This document shows positions 505 to 12,499 of a stretch of DNA of 12,499 nt, one piece after another (positions within the stretch are counted from its first letter, which is position 1; each line of letters opens with the position of its first letter). This DNA comes from a virus. Made by a program: the position numbers and the translations under genes. The notes beneath the pieces are model-generated. The model saw only the letters and a program-made list of their open reading frames with translations. It made no database searches and was not told where the DNA came from. The DNA lies in UHGV virus genome UHGV-0112872. The stretch is one strand, 5' to 3'.

Positions 505-1536
505 TCAAAAACTTGCTATTGATGTTGGTAGTGTTGCCAGCGGATTAAACCGTAATGCAGTTTCCAGGTGATCCGGTGCCAGATGTGCGTAACGCATAGT
601 CATTTTTATATCGTGGTGTCCGAGAATTTTTTGTAAGGCCAGAATGTTTCCACCCGACATCATGAAGTGCGCCGCAAACGTATGGCGCAGAACGTGTGTC
701 AGTTGACCGCGAGGGAGCACGATAGACGTTTTTTCCATCACGGATAAAAATTGAAAATAGCAGTCTGTAAAGAAATTGAACCCATCAAGCGCCATGATCT
801 CTTCGTAAAGCTCTTTACTGATAGGGATGCTTCTGTTTTTCTTCCCCTTCGTTCTTACAAAGGTAATTCGGTATTTGGTCACCTGTGAGCGGGTAAGATT
901 TACGGCTTCACGCCAACGTGCGCCTGTGCTTAAGCATATCTTAACTACCAGTGCCAGAATTGGGTCCTGACGTTTGCAATCAGCCAGCAATTCAACAATC
1001 TGCTCATGGGTAAGCCATGCCATCTCTTTTTCTGCGATGGTGAATTTTCGCATGTTCTCCAGTGGGTTCGGATACGACCATTCGCCCAGGCGGGATAGTT
1101 CGCTAAAAACACTACTTAGATAGCTTTGCTCCAGGTTAATGGTGACCGGGCTTGCTCCTTTCTTCCATTTCTCGCTGAAGTAGATCTCACCTGTCAGGCG
1201 TTTATCTCGATAGTGGGCAAACATTTTAGATGTGAGATCAGTTGCAAGGGGATTGCCCAGAGCGTCAACCATCAGCAGCAATTTGTCATAGACATGCTGC
1301 CCAGCTGTCAGAGATTTACCATGTAGTTTGAACCATAGCTCAACCACGTCTTTCAGTGTTCGACGATCCACTGATTCACCCAGCCAGGGCTTTGCTTCGG
1401 TTTCTTCCATCGTGTGGCGCTCAAAAGCCAGTGCTTCGCCTTTGGTGACGAATTGTTTACGCACACGACGCCCACTACGTCCGGCGGGGTAACATTCGCA
1501 AAGCCATTTTCCTGTGGTGAGTTTTCGTACAGCCAT
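505..1536 (-). CDS. int: Tyrosine integrase, P2/186 family
   Basis: Six-frame ORF 505..1692; start assigned to the internal ATG at 1536, preceded by GGAGGG (product begins MAVRKLTTGKW). Tyrosine-recombinase signature segments present: ICLSTGARWREA (Arg), HVLRHTFAAHFM (H-x-x-R), GHHDIKMTMRYAHL (catalytic Tyr region). Overall pattern matches my recollection of the P2 Int C-terminal domain. Confidence 0.9.
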   Translation of the reverse strand: MAVRKLTTGKWLCECYPAGRSGRRVRKQFVTKGEALAFERHTMEETEAKPWLGESVDRRTLKDVVELWFKLHGKSLTAGQHVYDKLLLMVDALGNPLATDLTSKMFAHYRDKRLTGEIYFSEKWKKGASPVTINLEQSYLSSVFSELSRLGEWSYPNPLENMRKFTIAEKEMAWLTHEQIVELLADCKRQDPILALVVKICLSTGARWREAVNLTRSQVTKYRITFVRTKGKKNRSIPISKELYEEIMALDGFNFFTDCYFQFLSVMEKTSIVLPRGQLTHVLRHTFAAHFMMSGGNILALQKILGHHDIKMTMRYAHLAPDHLETALRFNPLATLPTSIASF

Positions 1537-1724
1537 AAAAAATGCCCTCCAATAGAGAGCATTTTTACTGTATGTATAACCAGTGTCAATGTATGAAATC
1601 CTGCGACCATACATCTCACTGAAGCCATAATGAAGTAGGCTATTCTTTTTGCTATGTGAGCATGTAACTTTTGCGGTTAACCTGTGGCTCATTTTTATTT
1701 TAGGCGCAGATATAAAAGCAAAAG

Positions 1725-1916
1725 TTATCGTGAGTTTTTAGTACAGATTTTTTTGGATTTACTAATAGTTCCATCATTGCAAACGAATTTGCCATCAGAG
1801 GTACAGTGAGAAACACCTCCCTTTTTCCCTGAGCAGGGATAATTTCTAGCATAGGTAGCTAGTGGGTTTAATAACAAAGAACATGACAAAACCACAAAAA
1901 ATACCTTACCAAGCAT
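1725..1916 (-). CDS. Small (63 aa) predicted secreted cysteine-containing protein, moron-like insert between int and cI
   Basis: Strong RBS (GGGAGG about 7 nt upstream of ATG on minus strand). N-terminal hydrophobic signal-like segment [23 protein letters not shown] followed by a polar, Lys-rich region with four further cysteines. Embedded in a conspicuously AT-rich stretch (1693-1931). Confidence 0.5.
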
Positions 1917-1931: not shown

Positions 1932-2501
1932 CTATTTAACATACTTGACTGTTAAACTTATAATTTTACCAATTATTTCAATGTCTTCTATCTTGCATTC
2001 GAAGGCTCTGTTTCCACCCTCGACGAAGATTCTTCCACCGGGTAAACGAGTAATGTCACGGATCGTTATTTCGCCATCAATACTTATTACCCATTTACCA
2101 TCACGTATATCATCAAATTCCTTATCACAAATAAATTCAGAATTATTATCTGTGATTACAAAAAGATTCTTGAATGCCGACGGTAGAAATTCTCTATCGA
2201 AAATATAAAAACCGTCTTCACACAAGGCCCCATCAGATAATACATATTTAGCAACTTCCATAGTATTTGTATTACCTGAAGTTTGCTTTGAACCATGCCC
2301 GGTTGTGAGCCAATTAAGCGAGGTGCCTGTTTCAAGGGCGCACTGGATTACCCATTCTGCTGGGAATGAGTCACGCATGTAGCGTGTGGCGAGTGTACTT
2401 TTAGAGATTCCTAAATGATCGCACAACGCCTGTCGAGTCTTGAATCCATAAGCTTCTACCATGCGCTCTATAGCGCCTCGTCCGCCTTTCTCCAAATTCA
2501 T
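1932..2501 (-). CDS. cI: CI-like immunity repressor (186-type), HTH DNA-binding protein
   Basis: About 189 aa from ATG at 2501 (GGAG 7 nt upstream; an alternative in-frame GTG lies at 2507). Helix-turn-helix-like segment TRQALCDHLGISKSTLATRYM near the N-terminus. Leftward orientation upstream of int and divergent from the Apl/CII operon matches 186 architecture. Confidence 0.75.
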   Translation of the reverse strand: MNLEKGGRGAIERMVEAYGFKTRQALCDHLGISKSTLATRYMRDSFPAEWVIQCALETGTSLNWLTTGHGSKQTSGNTNTMEVAKYVLSDGALCEDGFYIFDREFLPSAFKNLFVITDNNSEFICDKEFDDIRDGKWVISIDGEITIRDITRLPGGRIFVEGGNRAFECKIEDIEIIGKIISLTVKYVK

Positions 2502-2507
2502 GGTCAC

Positions 2508-4681: not shown

Positions 4682-5535
4682 GCACCATCCTGAAATGGGC
4701 GGGAAATAAAACCGCAATTATGTCCGAACTGAAAAAATACCTACCTGCTGGCCCGCGACTGGTTGAACCTTTCGCGGGTTCCTGTGCTGTGATGATGGAG
4801 ACGGATTACCCCAGCTATCTGGTTGCGGATATTAATCCTGATTTAATCAACCTCTATAAAAAGATTGCCGCTGATTGCGAGGCGTTTATATCGCGGACCA
4901 GAACTTTGTTTGAGGAAGCAAACAGTGACCTAGCTTATTACAACATAAGGCAGGAGTTTAATTACTCAACTGAAATTACTGATTTCATGAAAGCGGTATA
5001 TTTCCTGTATCTCAATCGTCACGGTTACCGTGGTTTATGTCGCTATAACAAGAGCGGGCATTTCAACATCCCCTACGGTAATTATAAAAATCCGTATTTC
5101 CCTGAAAAAGAAATTCACGCATTTGCAGAAAAGGCCCAGCGAGCAACGTTTATCTGCGCCAGCTTTGATGAAACGCTGGCGATGTTGAAGGCGGGGGATG
5201 TGGTGTATTGCGATCCGCCGTATGACGGCACGTTTTCCGGTTATCACACTGACGGCTTCACTGAAGATGACCAGTATCACCTGGCATCCGTTCTTGAACA
5301 TCGGTCATCAGAAGGACATCCAGTCATTGTTTCTAACAGTGACACATCCCTGATCCGTTCGCTGTATCGCAATTTCACTCACCACTACATCAAGGCAAAA
5401 CGCAGCATCGGCGTGTCAGCTGGCGAGAGTAAATCTGCAACAGAAATCATTGCTGTTTCCGGGTCGCGCTGCTGGATGGGATTTGATCCTTCGCGTGGCG
5501 TGGATAGTTCTGCCGTGTACGGAGTACGTGCATGA
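4678..5535 (+). CDS. dam: Dam-like DNA N6-adenine methyltransferase
   Basis: 285 aa; ATG 4678 overlaps the upstream stop (ATGA). AdoMet-binding motif I ([11 protein letters not shown]) near the N-terminus and catalytic DPPY ([10 protein letters not shown]) downstream, the Dam-type arrangement; N-terminal KWAGNK is Dam-like. Confidence 0.85.
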
Positions 5536-7946
5536 GTCATGCCGATATGAACAACTGCTGCGGCTTTAACGAGGCTGCCGCAGCATTTTCATGGAACGGC
5601 CCGAAAAAGGCCATTAACCCTTATCTGGATCCGGCGGAAGTTGCGCCGGAGTCTGCACTTTCAAACCTGATCACTCTGTACGCTGCCGATAACGAGCAGG
5701 AACAACTGCGCCGCGAGGCACTGAGTGAGCAGGTCTGGGAGCGTTATTTCTTTAATGAATCCCGTGATCCTGTCCAGCGCGAAATGGAGCAGGATAAGCT
5801 CATTAGCCGGGCAAAGCTGGCGCATGAGCAGCAGCGTTTTAACCCGGACATGGTCATTCTGGCAGATGTCAGCGCCCAGCCTTCTCATATCAGCAAGCCG
5901 CTGATGCAACGTATCGAATACTTCAGCAGCCTGGGCAGGCCAAAGGCTTATTCCCGCTATTTGCGTGAGACGATTAAGCCATGTCTGGAGCGACTGGATT
6001 GTGTACGTGACAGTCAGCTATCTGTTTCTTTCCGTTTTATGGCAAGCCATCAAGGGCTGGAGGGGCTGCTGATCCTGCCTGAAATGAGCCAGGATCAGGT
6101 GAAACGCCTGTCCACCCTGGTAGCAGCGCATATGAGCATGTGTCTTGAGGCCGCTTGTGGTGATTTGTACGCCACCGATGACGTTAAGCCAGAAGAAATC
6201 CGCAAGACATGGGAAAAGGTGGCAGCGGAAACCCTGCGTCTGGATGTTATCCCGCCTGCGTTTGAGAAACTTCGTCGGAAAAGAAACCGCCGCAAACCTG
6301 TGCCCTATGAACTCATACCGGGTTCGCTGGCACGTATGCTTTGCGCCGACTGGTGGTATCGAAAATTGTGGAAGATGCGTTGCGAATGGCGGGAAGAGCA
6401 GTTGCGTGCTGTCTGTCTGGTCAGCAAAAAAGCATCTCCCTATGTCAGCTATGAAGCAGTGACGCATAAACGTGAGCAGCGCCGCAAGTCGCTGGAGTTT
6501 TTCCGTTCTCATGAACTGGTGAACGAAGACGGAGACACGCTGGATATGGAAGATGTGGTAAACGCCAGCAGCAGCAACCCGGCACATCGCCGCAATGAGA
6601 TGATGGCCTGCGTTAAAGGTCTGGAGCTTATCGCGGAAATGCGCGGTGACTGCGCCGTTTTCTACACCATCACCTGTCCGTCACGTTTCCATTCCACGCT
6701 CAATAACGGCAGACCAAACCCGACCTGGACAAATGCGACGGTAAGACAAAGCAGTGATTATCTGGTCGGCATGTTTGCTGCATTTCGTAAGGCGATGCAC
6801 AAAGCCGGATTGCGGTGGTATGGCGTGCGGGTGGCTGAGCCGCATCATGACGGTACTGTGCACTGGCATCTCATGTGCTTCATGCGTAAAAAAGACCGCC
6901 GCGCCATCACTGCATTACTGCGTAAGTTTGCCATCCGTGAAGACCGCGAGGAACTGGGCAATAACACGGGGCCACGCTTTAAGTCTGAGCTGATTAACCC
7001 GCGCAAAGGAACGCCGACAAGCTACATCGCGAAATACATCAGTAAGAACATTGACGGGCGTGGTCTGGCTGGCGAGATCAGCAAGGAAACGGGTAAATCC
7101 CTGCGTGATAACGCTGAATACGTTAATGCCTGGGCGTCTCTGCATCGTGTTCAGCAATTCCGCTTCTTTGGCATTCCGGGGCGTCAGGCTTACCGTGAAC
7201 TGCGATTGCTGGCTGGTCAGGCGGCAAGGCAGCAGGGTGACAAAAAAGCAGGTGCGCCGGTACTGGATGATCCGCGTCTTGATGCCATTCTGGCTGCTGC
7301 TGATGCTGGCTGTTTTGCCACCTACATTATGAAGCAGGGCGGCGTGTTGGTTCCCCGCAAATATCACTTGATCAGAACCGCTTATGAAATCAACGAAGAG
7401 CCGACCGCCTATGGTGATCACGGTATTCGTATTTATGGCATCTGGTCACCCATTGCAGAGGGCAAGATCTGCACTCATGCAGTGAAGTGGAAAATGGTTC
7501 GTAAGGCCGTTGACGTTCAGGAGGCGGCAGCCGACCAGGGCGCTTGCGCCCCTTGGACTCGTGGCAATAACTGTCCCCTTGCTGAAAATTTGAACCAACA
7601 AGGGAAAGACAAATCAGCTGATGGGGATACCAGGACGGACATTACCCGCATGGATGACAAGGAGTTGCACGATTACCTGCACAGTATGAGCAAAAAAGAG
7701 CGCCGGGAACTGGCTGCAAGGTTACGCCTGGTGAAACCGAAACGGCGTAAAGACTACAAACAGCGAATTACAGACCATCAGCGACAGCAGCTCGTCTATG
7801 AACTGAAGTCCAGAGGATTTGATGGCAGCGAGAAAGAGGTCGATTTACTCCTTCGCGGCGGCAGTATTCCGTCAGGAGCAGGCCTGCGTATCTTCTATCG
7901 GAACCAGCGTTTGCAGGAAGATGATAAGTGGCGAAACCTGTATTAA
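5532..7946 (+). CDS. A: Replication initiation endonuclease, gene A type (rolling-circle / HUH)
   Basis: 804-aa ORF, ATG 5532 overlapping the dam stop (ATGA) with GGAG upstream. HUH-type metal-binding motif (HWHLMCF) and downstream paired tyrosines (YIAKYISK), as in P2 gpA-family proteins. Confidence 0.9.
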
Positions 7947-8014
7947 TTACGCGGGTTAACAATTCGTGCTCTTAATAATACCAGGCATATCAGGCTGATG
8001 AACGTAAAAAAACG

Positions 8015-8058
8015 TTTTACATCAGTAAGATTATTATATACTGTAAATATAAACAGTG
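8015..8058 (+). promoter_or_regulatory. SOS-regulated promoter with LexA box
   Basis: Near-consensus LexA operator TACTGTAAATATAAACAGTG (8039-8058; CTGT-N8-ACAG). It overlaps a candidate -10 TATACT (8037-8042); -35-like TTTACA at 8016-8021. Immediately upstream of the Tum-position gene, as in the 186 SOS operon. Confidence 0.7.
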
Positions 8059-8099
8059 GTTATGCATACAGTATTGCTTGTGGTGTCATAGGAGGAAAG

Positions 8100-8288
8100 A
8101 TGCAGGACTATTTTTTGGAGTCTTTGAAGCTCCAGCGCATTGATTTTTTTCTTAAGCTTGTAGCGGCTAGTGAGTGTAGTGATGAAGAGAAGGGGCTGGC
8201 CCTGCAATGGGTTTCTGAACTAACAGATGAACTCATGGCAAAAATCAGAACCCACGAATACAACCGCTCAATGGATGTCATCAGCTGA
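8100..8288 (+). CDS. Small protein (62 aa) in LexA-controlled operon, occupying the position of the 186 Tum antirepressor
   Basis: ATG 8100 preceded by GGAGGA; first ORF downstream of the LexA box. Identity as a Tum-like antirepressor is positional inference only. Confidence 0.5.
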   Translation: MQDYFLESLKLQRIDFFLKLVAASECSDEEKGLALQWVSELTDELMAKIRTHEYNRSMDVIS

Positions 8289-8298
8289 GGTGACTTTT

Positions 8299-8532
8299 AT
8301 GCGCATTGAAATAATGATCGATAAAGAGCAGAAGATTAGCCAGTCTACCCTGGATGCCCTTGAATCCGAGCTTTACCGCAATCTGCGCCCCCTGTATCCC
8401 AAAACGGTAATTCGTATCCGCAAAGGTAGCTCTAACGGTGTGGAACTGACCGGACTGCAACTGGACGAAGAAAGAAAACAAGTGCTGAAAATTATGCAGA
8501 AGGTGTGGGAAGACGACTGCTGGCTGCATTGA
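8299..8532 (+). CDS. dinI: DinI-family protein
   Basis: 77 aa beginning MRIEIMIDK and ending WEDDCWLH. It aligns by eye with E. coli DinI (MRIEVTIAK ... ETWESADDWF): shared MRIE start, DAL..EL motif, central hydrophobic core, C-terminal acidic W-containing tail. GAGGTGA upstream. Confidence 0.8.
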   Translation: MRIEIMIDKEQKISQSTLDALESELYRNLRPLYPKTVIRIRKGSSNGVELTGLQLDEERKQVLKIMQKVWEDDCWLH

Positions 8533-8668
8533 TAGGTTTCGTTTGTAATGAGTCATGTTTTTTGAGTCCGATAGTAGACAGCTAGAGGGATAAATGATTA
8601 ATAGATAGATTAAACATAGTGATGGGCGTAAAATCGCGCGCATTTTATTGGCAACGGATCTGAACTCA

Positions 8669-9562
8669 ATGGCGGATAAGACTCAATCAGTAAGTATTGT
8701 GTATCAAGGCAAAGCTCTCGACGATCATAAGATGGATATTCTTTCGTTTGCGAAAAGTTTGCAGGGGCTAGGTGAGGCTATCTACTCTGCAAATGAGATT
8801 GTAAACGGAGGGCGAGACATTGAAGTTAACGTTGACGCTGAATTGATAGCCGGTTCCTTTGGGTTTGATATTGAGGTTGTACAACATCTAGCTAATGCTA
8901 AAGATGTTGTACAAATTTTAGGTTTGTCAGCCATTCCTTTAGCCGTTGGCGGTGCTACAGTTTTAGAGGTTCTCAAGAAGCTTAACGGGCGTAAGATCGA
9001 CATAGTCGAGAAAGCTAACGGTAGTGACAAAGTTAAGCTGAAAGTCGATGGTGAAGAGATTGTTTGCTCTGAAGATGTCGAAAAAATCGTTAATGCCCCA
9101 GAGATTCGTAAGGCTGTTGACGCGTTTGTCAGACAGCCTCTGTTACAAGATGGTATCGACAATTTTGTGGTAAAAAAATCGCGCACCTCTAAGAAAGAAA
9201 TCCTCAAAATTCATAAAGATGAGGCAGAAGAGTTTAAGTCGCCAAAAGTTCTCTTTGAAACCAAAGAAGAAGTTGACGAATTTGAAACAACCGTGACATT
9301 CGTTTCGGCGCATACTGACAAAAAAAGTGGCTGGCGTGTTGAGTTTGGCGGTGAAAAGCGCAATGTCAGAATGGAAGATAATGAGTTCATCAAGCTTGTT
9401 ACTGGACCAGACGCCCCCAAAATTTTTGGCGAATTGTTTGCTGTGAAGATGAAGAAAATTGTGAAAGATTCCGGTGGCCAGGTAGACGAAAAGTTATCGA
9501 TCATCAAAGTGGGTCGACACTTTGCCGCCAAAGATAGAAAAATAAAACCTGATGCGGATTAA
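8669..9562 (+). CDS. Cargo module 1, gene 1: uncharacterised 297-aa Lys/Glu/Asp-rich protein with one internal hydrophobic segment
   Basis: Long ORF (ATG 8669; alternative in-frame TTG 8648) in an AT-richer block. Hydrophobic stretch ILGLSAIPLAVGGATVLEVL around residues 85-105, then a long highly charged region. No catalytic motif recognised. Confidence 0.6.
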   Translation: MADKTQSVSIVYQGKALDDHKMDILSFAKSLQGLGEAIYSANEIVNGGRDIEVNVDAELIAGSFGFDIEVVQHLANAKDVVQILGLSAIPLAVGGATVLEVLKKLNGRKIDIVEKANGSDKVKLKVDGEEIVCSEDVEKIVNAPEIRKAVDAFVRQPLLQDGIDNFVVKKSRTSKKEILKIHKDEAEEFKSPKVLFETKEEVDEFETTVTFVSAHTDKKSGWRVEFGGEKRNVRMEDNEFIKLVTGPDAPKIFGELFAVKMKKIVKDSGGQVDEKLSIIKVGRHFAAKDRKIKPDAD

Positions 9563-9564
9563 AA

Positions 9565-9828
9565 ATGTCTATAGATATTAGTGTGTTAGGATGGTTGGGG
9601 CTGCTTGTTGCAGCTCCAGCTATATTTATAGGTGCTAGAGTGGCTATACGTAGCCTGCTCGATCGAGTTATTGTCGAAACAAAAGTTTCTATCACTTATA
9701 CTGATGCAAACAAAAATGTCTATAAAACAAATATTTATATAAACAATGATGATGAGTTAATAAAGCTCATCGATGATATAGCAGAGAAAAATAAGCGTGA
9801 GAGGAAGGAGTCAGCCTCTCATGCCTGA
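9565..9828 (+). CDS. Cargo module 1, gene 2: small single-pass membrane protein (87 aa)
   Basis: ATG 2 nt after the upstream stop (tight coupling); N-terminal hydrophobic helix GWLGLLVAAPAIFIGARVAI followed by a charged soluble tail. Confidence 0.55.
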   Translation: MSIDISVLGWLGLLVAAPAIFIGARVAIRSLLDRVIVETKVSITYTDANKNVYKTNIYINNDDELIKLIDDIAEKNKRERKESASHA

Positions 9829-10237
9829 ACAAAAGAAAACAAGCGGTAAAGCAGTCGGTGTTACAGGTGGCGGCGGTGTAGGCCTTTTCCTAATAAAGCT
9901 GGCTAGCTTCATTACAGATCCAACATGGAAAGACCTTTACATTGCTTCAATACCGATGGTGTCAATTCTTTTAAGCGAAGTTTTTACTTTTGCATGGACG
10001 ATTTATGCTGTTGATCCGCAAGAAATCAAACTGAAAAGGCGGTTGAAGGCTCTGAAGAAGCAAGCCGAAGCAGTTTTAAATGCACCATCGTCCCCTGTTT
10101 CTCCAGAAATGCGAGAGAAAGCGCAGGCTCGTTACGACGTGATCTGTGGAATTGAAATGGGAATTTACCCCCTCTCAATTGTAAATACGCTAGATGGAAA
10201 AGTATCCCCCACAGCGCAAACGCCGGACGTTAAATAG
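9821..10237 (+). CDS. Cargo module 1, gene 3: small two-helix membrane protein (138 aa)
   Basis: ATG 9821 preceded by GGAAGGAG and overlapping the upstream gene by 8 nt. Two hydrophobic segments (GVGLFLIKLASFI; IASIPMVSILLSEVFTFAWTIYAV) followed by a Lys-rich helical tail. Confidence 0.55.
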   Translation: MPEQKKTSGKAVGVTGGGGVGLFLIKLASFITDPTWKDLYIASIPMVSILLSEVFTFAWTIYAVDPQEIKLKRRLKALKKQAEAVLNAPSSPVSPEMREKAQARYDVICGIEMGIYPLSIVNTLDGKVSPTAQTPDVK

Positions 10238-10300
10238 CAGTTTCTACTTTGCATGACTATGCTGCATGAAATCGCATGATCGTTTGAGGATCGTTTTTGC

Positions 10301-10328
10301 AAAAGCCCGCCAGAACTGGCGGGCTTTT
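10301..10328 (+). terminator. Rho-independent terminator closing the right-arm operon
   Basis: GC-rich inverted repeat GCCCGCC (10305-10311) / GGCGGGC (10318-10324) followed by TTTT (10325-10328) and preceded by AAAA. Confidence 0.7.
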
Positions 10329-10373
10329 GCGTAGAGCATGCATCTGCATGAAAACCACTACATAAAGCGGGCA

Positions 10374-10392
10374 GGCGTGGCGGGGATACGAG
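10374..10392. other. Candidate cos site (cohesive-end motif of P2/186-type phages)
   Basis: GGCGTGGCGGGGATACGAG followed by GCGCGCGCT. The first 13 nt match the 186 cohesive end as I recall it (GGCGTGGCGGGGAAAGCAT; P2 is GGCGAGGCGGGGAAAGCAC), and the flanking GCGCGCT resembles the sequence next to the P2 left end. These reference sequences are from memory. Confidence 0.6.
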
Positions 10393-10522
10393 CGCGCGCT
10401 AACTCTTGGCTTTGTTTCATAATCAAAAATGTGATCATTGAGATTATTCTTAAATTTGTGTTTGTCTATGAAATATCATTTCGCTTAACATTGTTTGAGT
10501 TAGGACTACATGAGAATAAAGA

Positions 10523-11098
10523 ATGCTTTTACCCGTAAGTATTACATCGTGTGGCTTGTATCACCCCTACTGGCATTTGGGAGAGCGCAACCCTCATAGC
10601 GATGAACTATCAAGGCAGATGATGGATTTTAAGGATGAAAATAATCGTAATCATCAAAGGGCCATTAACCGTTTTTCTCGATTAGCTATAGATAAGGTTG
10701 GGCGGTTAGTAATCAGAGGTGGCGGTGGGCGTTTTGTTGAGTCTCCTTTTTCGATAGCAGTTGTCCCGTCTCACACTGAAGGCAGAATTTCACCGGCTTT
10801 GATTGAGGTCGCCGAGCGAATCGTAAATGTTCACCGTCGGGGCATTGTTGATTGCTGTTTGGAAAGAACACGCACTGTTCCTAGCGCACATCGTGAAGGT
10901 GGAGATCGCTCAATTACTGGTCACATGTCTAGTATCAGAGTTAGGGGTGGTAACCTCATGGGGCGAAATGTGTTACTACTAGATGATGTTAAAACAACAG
11001 GCGGTAGTTTGTCTGCGTGTTTTTATTTACTGGAGTCTGCAGGAGCTGGAGTTATAATGCCATTAGCTCTGCTAGAAACTGCAAACTATGAGGAGTAG
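10523..11098 (+). CDS. Cargo module 2, gene 1: phosphoribosyltransferase (PRTase, type I) domain protein
   Basis: PRPP-binding signature VLLLDDVKTTGGSL near the C-terminus, the classic type I PRTase motif also seen in ComF-like proteins. Start uncertain: ATG 10523 has a weak RBS; in-frame ATGs at 10619/10622 are alternatives. Confidence 0.7.
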   Translation: MLLPVSITSCGLYHPYWHLGERNPHSDELSRQMMDFKDENNRNHQRAINRFSRLAIDKVGRLVIRGGGGRFVESPFSIAVVPSHTEGRISPALIEVAERIVNVHRRGIVDCCLERTRTVPSAHREGGDRSITGHMSSIRVRGGNLMGRNVLLLDDVKTTGGSLSACFYLLESAGAGVIMPLALLETANYEE

Positions 11099-12062
11099 CA
11101 AAGTGCACTCAGAAGAATTAAAAAATACACTTGGATTAGCTATTCAAATCGGGAAGCTAGCATCTGATCAAAGTGTATTAAAATTCTTTGAGCTTATCGA
11201 TTTTGATGTTATTCGTGATATACGCGACTTAACTGAGATGGTTAATAGCCACGGGTTTCTAAAAGATAAAATATCTGAGACTGATTTTCTAATAGCGAAC
11301 GCTGAATTGGAGAACCACCATGTTAATGGTGTGGAGCTAATACCATATGGGTCTGAATTCTATCCTCTTAGTTTAGCTTTTACTCCTAATCCACCATCAA
11401 TTCTCTACATAAAAGGGGATAAAAGTATACTCAAAGAATTGCCGGGTGTCGCAATTGTAGGATCCCGTGATACCTCCCCTGCAGGGGAAGAAATAACGAG
11501 GCGGATCACTAATCAGATAGTGTCTGCTGGGTATATTGTTGTAAGTGGGTTAGCAATAGGCACTGATGCGAATGCTCACAAGGCAACGTTACAGGCAAAA
11601 GGAAAAACCATTGCTGTCTTGGCGCATGGTCTTGAGGAGGCTAAGCCGAAGCAAAACAGTCGACTTGCTCAAGAGATTCTGGATAAAGGTGGTGCATGGA
11701 TTTCTGAGTATCCTATGGGTCGGCCGGCCCAGAAACAATCATTTGTACAAAGAAATCGGATACAAGTTGGATTATCTGCAGGTTCAATTTTAATCGAGGC
11801 TGCGTTAAATAGCGGAACGATAACTCAAGCTGAGTTTGCAAATAAGGCGAAAAGACCAGTGTTTGCGGTTGTACCTCACCTACCTAATAATCCGCTTAAT
11901 CTTAATTGTGAGGGAACAGTTGATTTAGTTAAGAGCAACATGGCTAGAGCGCTAAAAACAAAACGGGATTATGATGATGTGATTATGATCATAAATGAGT
12001 CCCGGGAGTATTTGTTAGAGCTAAAATGGCCAGGGAAACAGAGTACATTAGACTTGATTTAA
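11088..12062 (+). CDS. Cargo module 2, gene 2: DprA/Smf-like (SLOG / Rossmann-fold DNA-processing-A domain) protein
   Basis: Segments GVAIVGSRDTSPAGEE, VVSGLAIGTDANAHKATL, KTIAVLAHGLEE, SEYPMGRPAQKQSFVQRNRIQVGLS and RPVFAVVPHLP follow the conserved order of DprA/Smf cores. Overlaps the PRTase gene end; an in-frame GTG at 11103 with AGGAG 7 nt upstream is a plausible alternative start. Confidence 0.8.
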   Translation: MRSSKVHSEELKNTLGLAIQIGKLASDQSVLKFFELIDFDVIRDIRDLTEMVNSHGFLKDKISETDFLIANAELENHHVNGVELIPYGSEFYPLSLAFTPNPPSILYIKGDKSILKELPGVAIVGSRDTSPAGEEITRRITNQIVSAGYIVVSGLAIGTDANAHKATLQAKGKTIAVLAHGLEEAKPKQNSRLAQEILDKGGAWISEYPMGRPAQKQSFVQRNRIQVGLSAGSILIEAALNSGTITQAEFANKAKRPVFAVVPHLPNNPLNLNCEGTVDLVKSNMARALKTKRDYDDVIMIINESREYLLELKWPGKQSTLDLI

Positions 12063-12086: not shown

Positions 12087-12499
12087 CTAAATTTGATATC
12101 TCTCGAATTTTATAATTTCTTCACCGCTCCAATGATTAAATTCTTTCATTCTTTTTTGTAATGGTAATAATTCATTTTTCACAAATACCTTACTAGCTTT
12201 TTCTACATCCCCAAATCCCCCAACATTATTAGGCATTATCCCCATCATTTGTGGCGGCACACGATGCGCTGCCATCATGTCATCCCGACTCACGTTCTTG
12301 ATGTTAAGAAATTCATCCTTCGCCGCGACTTCTGACAACGGGATGATCTGAAGCCCGTCCTTTTTGCCGTTAGGCGAGTACATAAACAGGTTGCGGAAGT
12401 TGCCAGGGCCTTTGGCGCTTTTCATCGCATTGCGGAGGTTGTTCACATCCTCCTGGTTCTGCGCGGCATCGGTCATGTACATGATGAAGCCTGCATGAC
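12087..12499 (-). CDS. Portal-like protein (P2 gpQ position), C-terminal part; gene continues beyond the window
   Basis: Minus-strand ORF open to the window edge (...PPQMMGIMPNNVGGFGDVEKASKVFVKNELLPLQKRMKEFNHWSGEEIIKFERYQI). Leftward orientation next to cos matches the Q/portal position in P2/186; family assignment is by position and general resemblance only. Confidence 0.55.
   Translation of the reverse strand, partial: HAGFIMYMTDAAQNQEDVNNLRNAMKSAKGPGNFRNLFMYSPNGKKDGLQIIPLSEVAAKDEFLNIKNVSRDDMMAAHRVPPQMMGIMPNNVGGFGDVEKASKVFVKNELLPLQKRMKEFNHWSGEEIIKFERYQI

Follow-up and report, generated by a model that had tools for sequence, protein, structure and literature searches.

The 12,499-nucleotide window analysed here, from UHGV virus genome UHGV-0112872, is a 186/P2-like prophage by its gene content. 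Between positions 8669 and 10237, it carries three coupled genes, designated A, B, and C. This trio is a mobile prophage cargo cassette. We propose that it most likely protects the lysogen against other phages by a mechanism of the abortive-infection or exclusion type, and that it represents, with three genes and in Proteobacteria, a variant of the gp29/gp30 system of mycobacteriophage MichelleMyBell (MMB), corresponding to the candidate PDC-S42 of PADLOC (probability of about 0.55 for this reading). The assignment to defence is based on the homology of A to the validated gp29 protein, on the accessory or lysogeny-associated sites occupied by the cassette, on the linkage of the three genes in 37 of 37 loci, and on their patchy presence in E. 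coli. A defence module had already been suggested by a reading of the DNA without database searches, referred to below as the sequence-only reading; it is the best-supported interpretation.

The cassette comprises the following features.

8669-9562, plus strand: gene A, ATG to TAA, 297 amino acids
9565-9828, plus strand: gene B, ATG to TGA, 87 amino acids
9821-10237, plus strand: gene C, ATG to TAG, 138 amino acids
8533-8668, plus strand: upstream intergenic region of 136 nucleotides, putative own promoter of the cassette

Genes A and B are separated by 2 nucleotides and genes B and C overlap by 8 nucleotides (ATGCCTGA). The cassette has a GC content of 41.7%, whereas the early operon reaches 50.2% and the replication gene 53.2%. 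Recomputation of the coordinates and of the GC content thus reproduced the layout initially described, including the AT-rich character of the block. For gene C, the mechanical list of open reading frames (ORFs) proposed a GTG start at 9797; the ATG at 9821 was adopted, as in RefSeq and in Rousset 2022.

Protein A and its relationship to MichelleMyBell gp29

Protein A scored well above the threshold of three family models, namely PADLOC PDC-S42 (PDLC05015; 8.8e-44, 148.2 bits, residues 5-288 aligned to positions 3-293 of the 302-position model), NCBIfam NF053583, named 'LAPAL motif-containing putative phage structural protein' (1.8e-56, 191.7 bits for a cutoff of 60), and PHROG 3243, of unknown function (3.7e-59). 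The sequence-only reading could not match A to any family and has to be corrected on this point. The three models describe single proteins without validated function, PDC-S42 being presented as a single-gene candidate (PMC12988326), whereas A is here obligately linked to B and C. The RefSeq product name derived from NF053583 is applied to A in strain PEC148. Pfam returned a weak match to DUF7946, restricted to the N-terminus, and the same domain was matched by 20 of 81 diverse members of the family. Name-based literature searches (PDC-S42, LAPAL motif, DUF7946, RefSeq accessions, and NF053583) returned nothing.

An exhaustive profile search (E<=1e-3) delineated a family of 1963 clusters at 50% identity, almost all members of which have 280-320 residues and a single-domain architecture. 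Close relatives dominated the output when the family profile was compared with a set of 5.8 billion proteins, and single distant members used as queries against viral contigs retrieved nothing. Residues W222 and D237 are strictly conserved in the 81 diverse members, and F240 nearly so. No catalytic motif is recognisable, as had been noted from the sequence, and A has no strongly basic domain.

The AlphaFold2 model of A (predicted local distance difference test score, pLDDT, of 81) begins at the N-terminus with a beta-alpha-beta-beta unit, continues with a linker rich in Gly and Ala and with an alpha/beta unit in the middle, and ends with a C-terminal unit (residues 199-284) of the order beta-beta-beta-alpha-beta-beta, which resembles an oligonucleotide/oligosaccharide-binding (OB) fold. 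The hallmark of the OB fold is a barrel of five beta-strands, strands 3 and 4 of which are connected by a helix. Structure prediction and fold search, which had been recommended for the proteins of the cassette, provided for A a model and no significant match in the PDB: Foldseek against the PDB gave no hit at E<=1e-3, and a sequence-profile search of the PDB gave none below E = 0.1.

The sequence-only reading also described A as a protein with one hydrophobic segment and a long charged region. Both features are present, since A contains 47 Lys and Arg and 52 Asp and Glu residues and a single moderately hydrophobic stretch at residues ~79-103 (Kyte-Doolittle score of 1.83). This stretch is not a conserved transmembrane (TM) helix: close homologues have Lys or Glu at these positions, with a best 19-residue hydropathy of 1.05, and the segment coincides with the Gly/Ala-rich linker of the model.

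Two observations led to the genome of MichelleMyBell. A homologue of A in a Vibrio prophage bears the depositors' note 'MMB_gp29_gp30__gp29', and a Foldseek search of BFVD with the model of A returned a protein of the cluster-N mycobacteriophage Pipsqueaks (E 3.7e-6). In MichelleMyBell, gp29 has 310 residues and is encoded by a gene overlapping that of gp30 (67 residues). Alignment by hhalign of the 81-member profile of the A family with gp29 gave a probability of 98.9% (E 2.4e-17) over 270 of ~300 columns, and the PDC-S42 hidden Markov model (HMM) also matched gp29 (1.6e-16). These profile comparisons identify A as a remote homologue of gp29 over its entire length.

Prophage-mediated defence by MMB gp29/gp30, designated MMB_gp29_gp30 in DefenseFinder, was reportedly described by Dedrick et al. 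in 2017. According to a later account, the system consists of a toxic protein, gp29, and of a putative membrane protein, gp30, that aids defence against lytic phages (PMC11856565). In another report, the defence is of the abortive-infection type, adsorption and injection being intact (PMC6426606). The MichelleMyBell prophage is stated, in a third report, to reduce the plating of phage Tweety by 4-5 logs, Tweety gp54 acting as a counter-defence (PMC8549241).

The two systems share a large soluble protein (310 residues for gp29 and 297 for A) with homology over the full length, and a small downstream gene for a two-TM protein, located on the same strand and overlapping the preceding gene, as gp30 does. 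Gp30 is a two-TM hairpin, and protein C opens with a hairpin of the same predicted topology. Both systems are prophage cargo, genes 29-30 of MichelleMyBell lying between the lysis genes and the integrase and immunity-repressor genes. They differ in that MMB has two genes, whereas the trio contains an additional one-TM protein, B, between A and the two-TM protein. Protein C is also twice as long as gp30 and ends in an extended basic tail on the cytoplasmic side; no sequence similarity between the two proteins was detected. Finally, the host of the trio is Gram-negative and that of MMB is mycobacterial.

Membrane partners, linkage, and distribution of the cassette

Protein B is predicted to be bitopic, with an N-terminal TM segment at residues ~5-30 (hydropathy of 2.15 over residues 1-32) and a small C-terminal soluble domain, which is predicted to be cytoplasmic according to the positive-inside rule. 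It had no match in Pfam, NCBIfam, or PADLOC and only a weak one to PHROG 36230. Protein C is predicted to form a two-TM hairpin (segments at ~11-32 and 38-64) comprising a Gly-rich TM1 ('AVGVTGGGGVG'), a TM2 with a conserved IP...F.F pattern, and a basic amphipathic C-terminal tail; the positive-inside rule predicts an N-in/C-in topology with a cytoplasmic tail. No model of the PADLOC, Pfam, PHROG, or NCBIfam libraries matched C. Topology analysis (one TM and two TM) is in agreement with the single-pass and two-helix proteins initially proposed for B and C. The predicted topology of C resembles that of class II holins or pinholins. Assignment of C as a holin was nevertheless rejected, as no holin family matched the protein and the phage has a separate cassette for holin, endolysin, and spanin.

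Linkage of the three genes was complete in the trio branch of the family. A copy of B immediately following A was located with the B-family HMM in all 37 loci of this branch, and the C-family HMM located a copy of C overlapping the end of B in the same proportion (37/37). Homologues of A sharing 27-97% identity with it are in every case followed by a B-like gene of ~85 codons and by an overlapping C-like gene of ~135-160 codons.

The cassette was found in several types of prophages and phages. It is present in 186-like prophages of E. coli and Pantoea; in a Klebsiella prophage with a tape-measure gene, on the strand opposite to both neighbours; in Proteus lambdoid prophages, directly downstream of the CI repressor gene, a position equivalent to that of rexAB; in the tail module of a Proteus siphophage; and in two Mu-like phages that differ greatly from each other, where it separates G from the protease gene I. 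The G-I junction is an anti-CRISPR accessory site in Pseudomonas Mu-like phages (PMC3993853). The trio also occurs (at 7980-9584) beside the integrase gene of a 14-kb temperate and tailless Vibrio phage of the Vinavirales (PM2-like), 10N.286.45.F8_PE001 (PQ189332). With this last occurrence, the cassette crosses the boundary between the viral realms Duplodnaviria and Varidnaviria. The Vinavirales element was the single match of A in a tblastn search of 50,697 deposited phage genomes. Near-identical cassette DNA was not detected in deposited phage genomes, in which only an 80-bp terminator block was matched. Imm_superinfect and SieB genes are among the neighbours of the trio in other prophages.

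Additional genes accompany the trio at some of these loci. In Proteus prophages, a lipoprotein-like cargo gene lies 3' of the trio, encoding 136 residues with a Gly-rich C-terminal hydrophobic segment (L006 and L008, 7707-8117) or 283 residues (L007, 7678-8529). A metagenomic homologue of A (L035, 130-1422) has 430 residues owing to an N-terminal extension of ~140 residues and is followed by B- and C-like genes and by a Holin_2-3 gene.

Identical A, B, and C proteins were each encoded by at least 1000 contigs across genera of the Enterobacteriaceae, in all cases with the label 'hypothetical'. The full cassette was present in seven of 5426 complete E. coli genomes, and one further genome contained 79% of it. 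The terminator and cos block that flanks the cassette was present in ~590 of these genomes, as expected from the early suggestion that the genes are accessory cargo of the P2/186 hotspot near cos. The genes could have been conserved core genes of all 186-like phages, which would have contradicted that suggestion; the cassette is absent from most 186/P2-like phages. The cassette is therefore an autonomous, horizontally mobile prophage cargo that moves as a trio.

The same three protein sequences are listed in Table S5B of Rousset 2022 as system #37 of the P2 hotspot, with 104 occurrences and no domains. The remark attached to this entry reads '2 TM in protein 2, 1 TM in protein 3', for one TM in B and two in C in our predictions. 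Since the trio is already catalogued and A is related to the validated gp29, the qualification of 'undescribed system' given by the sequence-only reading does not apply. The hotspot also harbours a validated three-gene system without predicted domains, protective against P1, which we take to be Rst_3HP of DefenseFinder. The trio does not belong to this system, which is entry #32 of the catalogue (MAKKLYFATDK...), is present in Table S2 of Rousset 2022, and has other sequences.

Membrane partners are missing from other branches of the A family. Members of the LAPAL branch, which display the N-terminal motif ...MDVR(E/D)LAPALLA..., comprise at least 1289 clusters at 90% identity, include proteins from Pseudomonas, Caballeronia, and Melainabacteria, and are not followed by membrane protein genes. 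In prophages of Pseudomonas (L038-L041) and Caballeronia (L044), the A-like gene is located downstream of the CI gene after one small gene, encoding a soluble protein of 113 residues in the former and a lipoprotein-like protein of 164 residues in the latter. These small genes may provide alternative partners. In a Melainabacteria genome (L042), the A-like gene is solo. The partnerless genes of the LAPAL branch, together with the reported toxicity of gp29, point to A as the self-sufficient core, and the membrane proteins look like lineage-specific partners.

The best promoter match upstream from gene A is TAGATT-17-TAAAAT, the -10 element of which ends 34 nucleotides 5' of the ATG codon. Scans for sigma-70 promoters gave scores no better than those of shuffled sequence. 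A gap of 128-298 nucleotides is conserved 5' of A in every homologous cassette, including those inserted in tightly packed late operons. The cassette of the Klebsiella prophage requires its own promoter since it is on the strand opposite to both neighbours. Based on the weak consensus matches, on the conserved upstream gaps, and on the arrangement in Klebsiella, we infer that a promoter belonging to the cassette drives its expression in the lysogen.

The cargo slots on both sides of cos

The remaining features of the window are listed below.

505-1692, minus strand: integrase gene
1932-2507, minus strand: CI repressor gene
5532-7946: replication endonuclease A gene
ending at 8532: DinI-like gene
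10305-10332, plus strand: intrinsic terminator (GCCCGCCAGAACTGGCGGGC and TTTTGCGT), closing the transcription unit of the cassette; part of the phage backbone, not of the cargo
10374-10392, plus strand: cohesive-end site cos (GGCGTGGCGGGGATACGAG), boundary of the cargo slot, outside the system
10523-12062, plus strand: complete Shosta system, overlapping genes forming a separate unit beyond cos and ahead of the portal gene
12087-12482, minus strand: portal gene, 3' part only
also in the window: genes for a CII-type regulator and a Dam methylase

The terminator is a hairpin (-16.3 kcal/mol) followed by a run of T residues. The 19 nucleotides at 10374-10392 are identical to those annotated as 'putative cos site' at positions 1-19 of the genome of Salmonella phage SEN8, the right end of which aligns with the window as far as position 10373. 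Placement of the cassette between the DinI-like gene and cos, as originally stated, is therefore correct, and the possibility that cos might not adjoin the cassette was dropped since it is contradicted by the SEN8 alignment. The block encompassing the terminator and cos (10250-10404) is 90-94% conserved in 88 records of P2/186-like phages.

Two slots of the hotspot, DinI-to-cos and cos-to-portal, are cleanly separated by this block, and the cargo of each differs among SEN8, PEC148, and the window. SEN8 contains a gene for a DNA-binding protein, on the opposite strand, in the slot occupied here by the cassette. PEC148 combines the trio with SieB, which takes the place of Shosta at the cos-to-portal site. 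Comparison with 186-like relatives, proposed at the outset as a check on cargo status, thus revealed different genes at these sites.

Shosta was identified by matches to ShosA (DprA-like, 2.8e-70; Pfam DNA_processg_A, 1.4e-60) and ShosT (phosphoribosyltransferase, PRTase, 3.7e-14). Searching the window with PADLOC, as had been advised, therefore called Shosta and matched A to PDC-S42, leaving B and C unmatched. The DprA and PRTase system of the P2 hotspot was validated against T7 and lambda (Rousset 2022). Shosta and the trio are cargo of the same hotspot on opposite sides of cos; they differ in that the Shosta proteins are unrelated to those of the trio and are encoded by their own transcription unit. 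Two separate cargo units consequently flank cos in this prophage.

An ORF of 63 codons (1725-1916, minus strand), located between the integrase and CI repressor genes, encodes a product with a signal-like hydrophobic N-terminus and several cysteines. The region is the most AT-rich of the window (~35.5% GC), and a Pfam scan of the product gave no match. It could be a small secreted product of lysogenic conversion or a spurious ORF.

Proposed mode of action and alternative explanations

In the mode of action that we propose, A would be the conserved core and carry a growth-arresting activity. In the uninfected lysogen, the cytoplasmic tail of C, as the counterpart of gp30, and the cytoplasmic domain of B would keep A inactive at the inner membrane. 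Infection would release or switch the complex by way of a phage protein or of a perturbation at the membrane, and A would then stop the cell before progeny are formed. This activity might involve the OB-like C-terminal domain around W222, D237, and F240. The sequence-only reading had envisaged a soluble partner combined with a membrane-disrupting effector. This layout is plausible but is one interpretation among others, gp29 being reported as the toxic part and many members of the A family lacking any membrane partner.

Several observations weigh against the proposed defence function and the link to MMB. Identity between A and gp29 is only ~20%, and the HMMs of B and C did not detect gp30 at E<=1e-3. 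Since gene B, in addition, intervenes between A and C, we consider the relationship between C and gp30 as an analogy rather than a homology. The toxicity of gp29 is known to us second-hand, from the account cited above (PMC11856565). PDC entries of PADLOC are unvalidated candidates originating from a guilt-by-embedding approach (PMC12988326). The #37 sequences are absent from the tables of tested systems in Rousset 2022. The promoter match is weak (8/12 consensus positions) and not significant by itself. Finally, the cassette lies within late structural operons in the Mu-like phages and in one Proteus phage, where it might be expressed during the lytic cycle.

We tentatively suggest that the gp29/PDC-S42 family, which comprises ~2000 clusters at 50% identity and extends from actinobacteriophages to P2-like prophages of E. 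coli and the tailless Vinavirales, could be a widespread and mechanistically new class of prophage immunity, although this extension is more doubtful than the defence function of the trio itself. Its core would be non-enzymatic and would act both as sensor and effector, with a ferredoxin-like N-terminal and an OB-like C-terminal part. The branch found in enterobacteria and Vibrio would have recruited a module of a one-TM protein and a Gly-zipper two-TM protein that senses phage entry or depolarises the membrane. To our knowledge, no characterised defence system has been described with such an architecture, combining a sensor-effector core with a membrane module.

The main alternative, if a rather doubtful one, is that the trio is wired as RexAB, A being only a cytoplasmic sensor that gates a pore. 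The pore would be formed by the Gly-rich two-TM hairpin of C, B would take part in assembly, and depolarisation of the membrane would abort the infection. The trio resembles RexAB, Sbash gp30/31, and CarolAnn gp44/43 in combining a soluble protein of ~280-370 residues with one or several membrane proteins, all produced by the prophage, and several of the homologous cassettes follow the CI repressor gene directly or at a short distance, as is the case in Proteus prophages. An abortive-infection logic has been proposed for RexAB-type systems, and those of Sbash and CarolAnn were modelled in this manner (PMC6426606). The holin-like N-in/C-in hairpin of C, its GGGG motif and basic cytoplasmic tail, and the strict linkage of B and C to A would also fit a gated pore. 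However, the membrane protein of RexAB-type systems has four TM segments, versus one and two in the trio, and the sequences are not related. A Pfam scan for the RexA-like domain DUF4747 was negative for A and for the 81 family members (0/81). Membership of the RexAB group was rejected on these grounds. In addition, the toxic component in the account of MMB is gp29, gp30 being referred to only as a putative membrane protein (PMC11856565). An effector confined to C is also improbable, given the large parts of the A family in which membrane partners are lacking.

Superinfection exclusion at the envelope appears unlikely. According to this explanation, B and C, with the aid of A, would block DNA entry without killing the cell, in the manner of Imm and Sp of T4, SieA of P22, or gp32 of mycobacteriophage Charlie. 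Production of two small inner-membrane proteins from a prophage cargo slot would be compatible with exclusion, as would the Imm_superinfect and SieB genes found next to the trio in other prophages. In contrast, the homologous MMB system resembles abortive infection, adsorption and injection being described as proceeding (PMC6426606), and the conserved core of the cassette is a soluble protein of 297 residues that is also found without membrane partners.

We consider as still less probable that the trio serves the lytic cycle of the phage itself, whether in the virion or its morphogenesis, in the timing of lysis, or in anti-defence. The name of NF053583 refers to a structural protein, the trio is located in head or tail gene clusters of the Mu-like phages and of the Proteus siphophage, a holin gene follows it in the metagenomic locus L035, and the G-I slot holds anti-CRISPR genes in Pseudomonas phages (PMC3993853). 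However, the trio is common to P2-like, Mu-like, and lambdoid phages, prophages with a tape-measure gene, and tailless Vinavirales, the virions of which are unrelated, and it also occupies non-structural slots, after CI, beside the integrase gene, and at the cos hotspot. Such a distribution, including lysogeny-associated and accessory slots, argues against a structural component. Most 186/P2-like phages are viable without the trio, a single deposited phage genome was matched by tblastn, and the P2-like phage that hosts the cassette has its own complete lysis cassette. The virion-structural role implied by the name of NF053583 is thus contradicted by the range of contexts and by the absence of the cassette from most related phages.

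A plain toxin-antitoxin addiction module stabilising the prophage without any anti-phage role would account for the toxicity attributed to gp29 (PMC11856565) and for the tight coupling and overlapping reading frames of the trio, but is most improbable since the MichelleMyBell prophage bearing the gp29 homologue displays strong phage defence (PMC8549241), validated defence systems are enriched at the P2 hotspot (PMC9122126), and defence and stabilisation can coexist.

The catalogue entry #37 and the gp29/gp30 family were already known; the obligate three-gene architecture and the breadth of the family are new. The analysis links an uncharacterised cassette of E. coli (Rousset #37, PDC-S42) to the validated gp29/gp30 system of a mycobacteriophage and thereby makes this type of defence tractable for study in E. 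coli. The core family is large and spans phyla and even viral realms. The RefSeq name 'putative phage structural protein' is probably misleading and is corrected here. In the enterobacterial branch, the system is an obligate three-gene unit, versus a single-gene candidate in current detection tools, and this bears on the annotation of defence functions in thousands of Enterobacteriaceae genomes.

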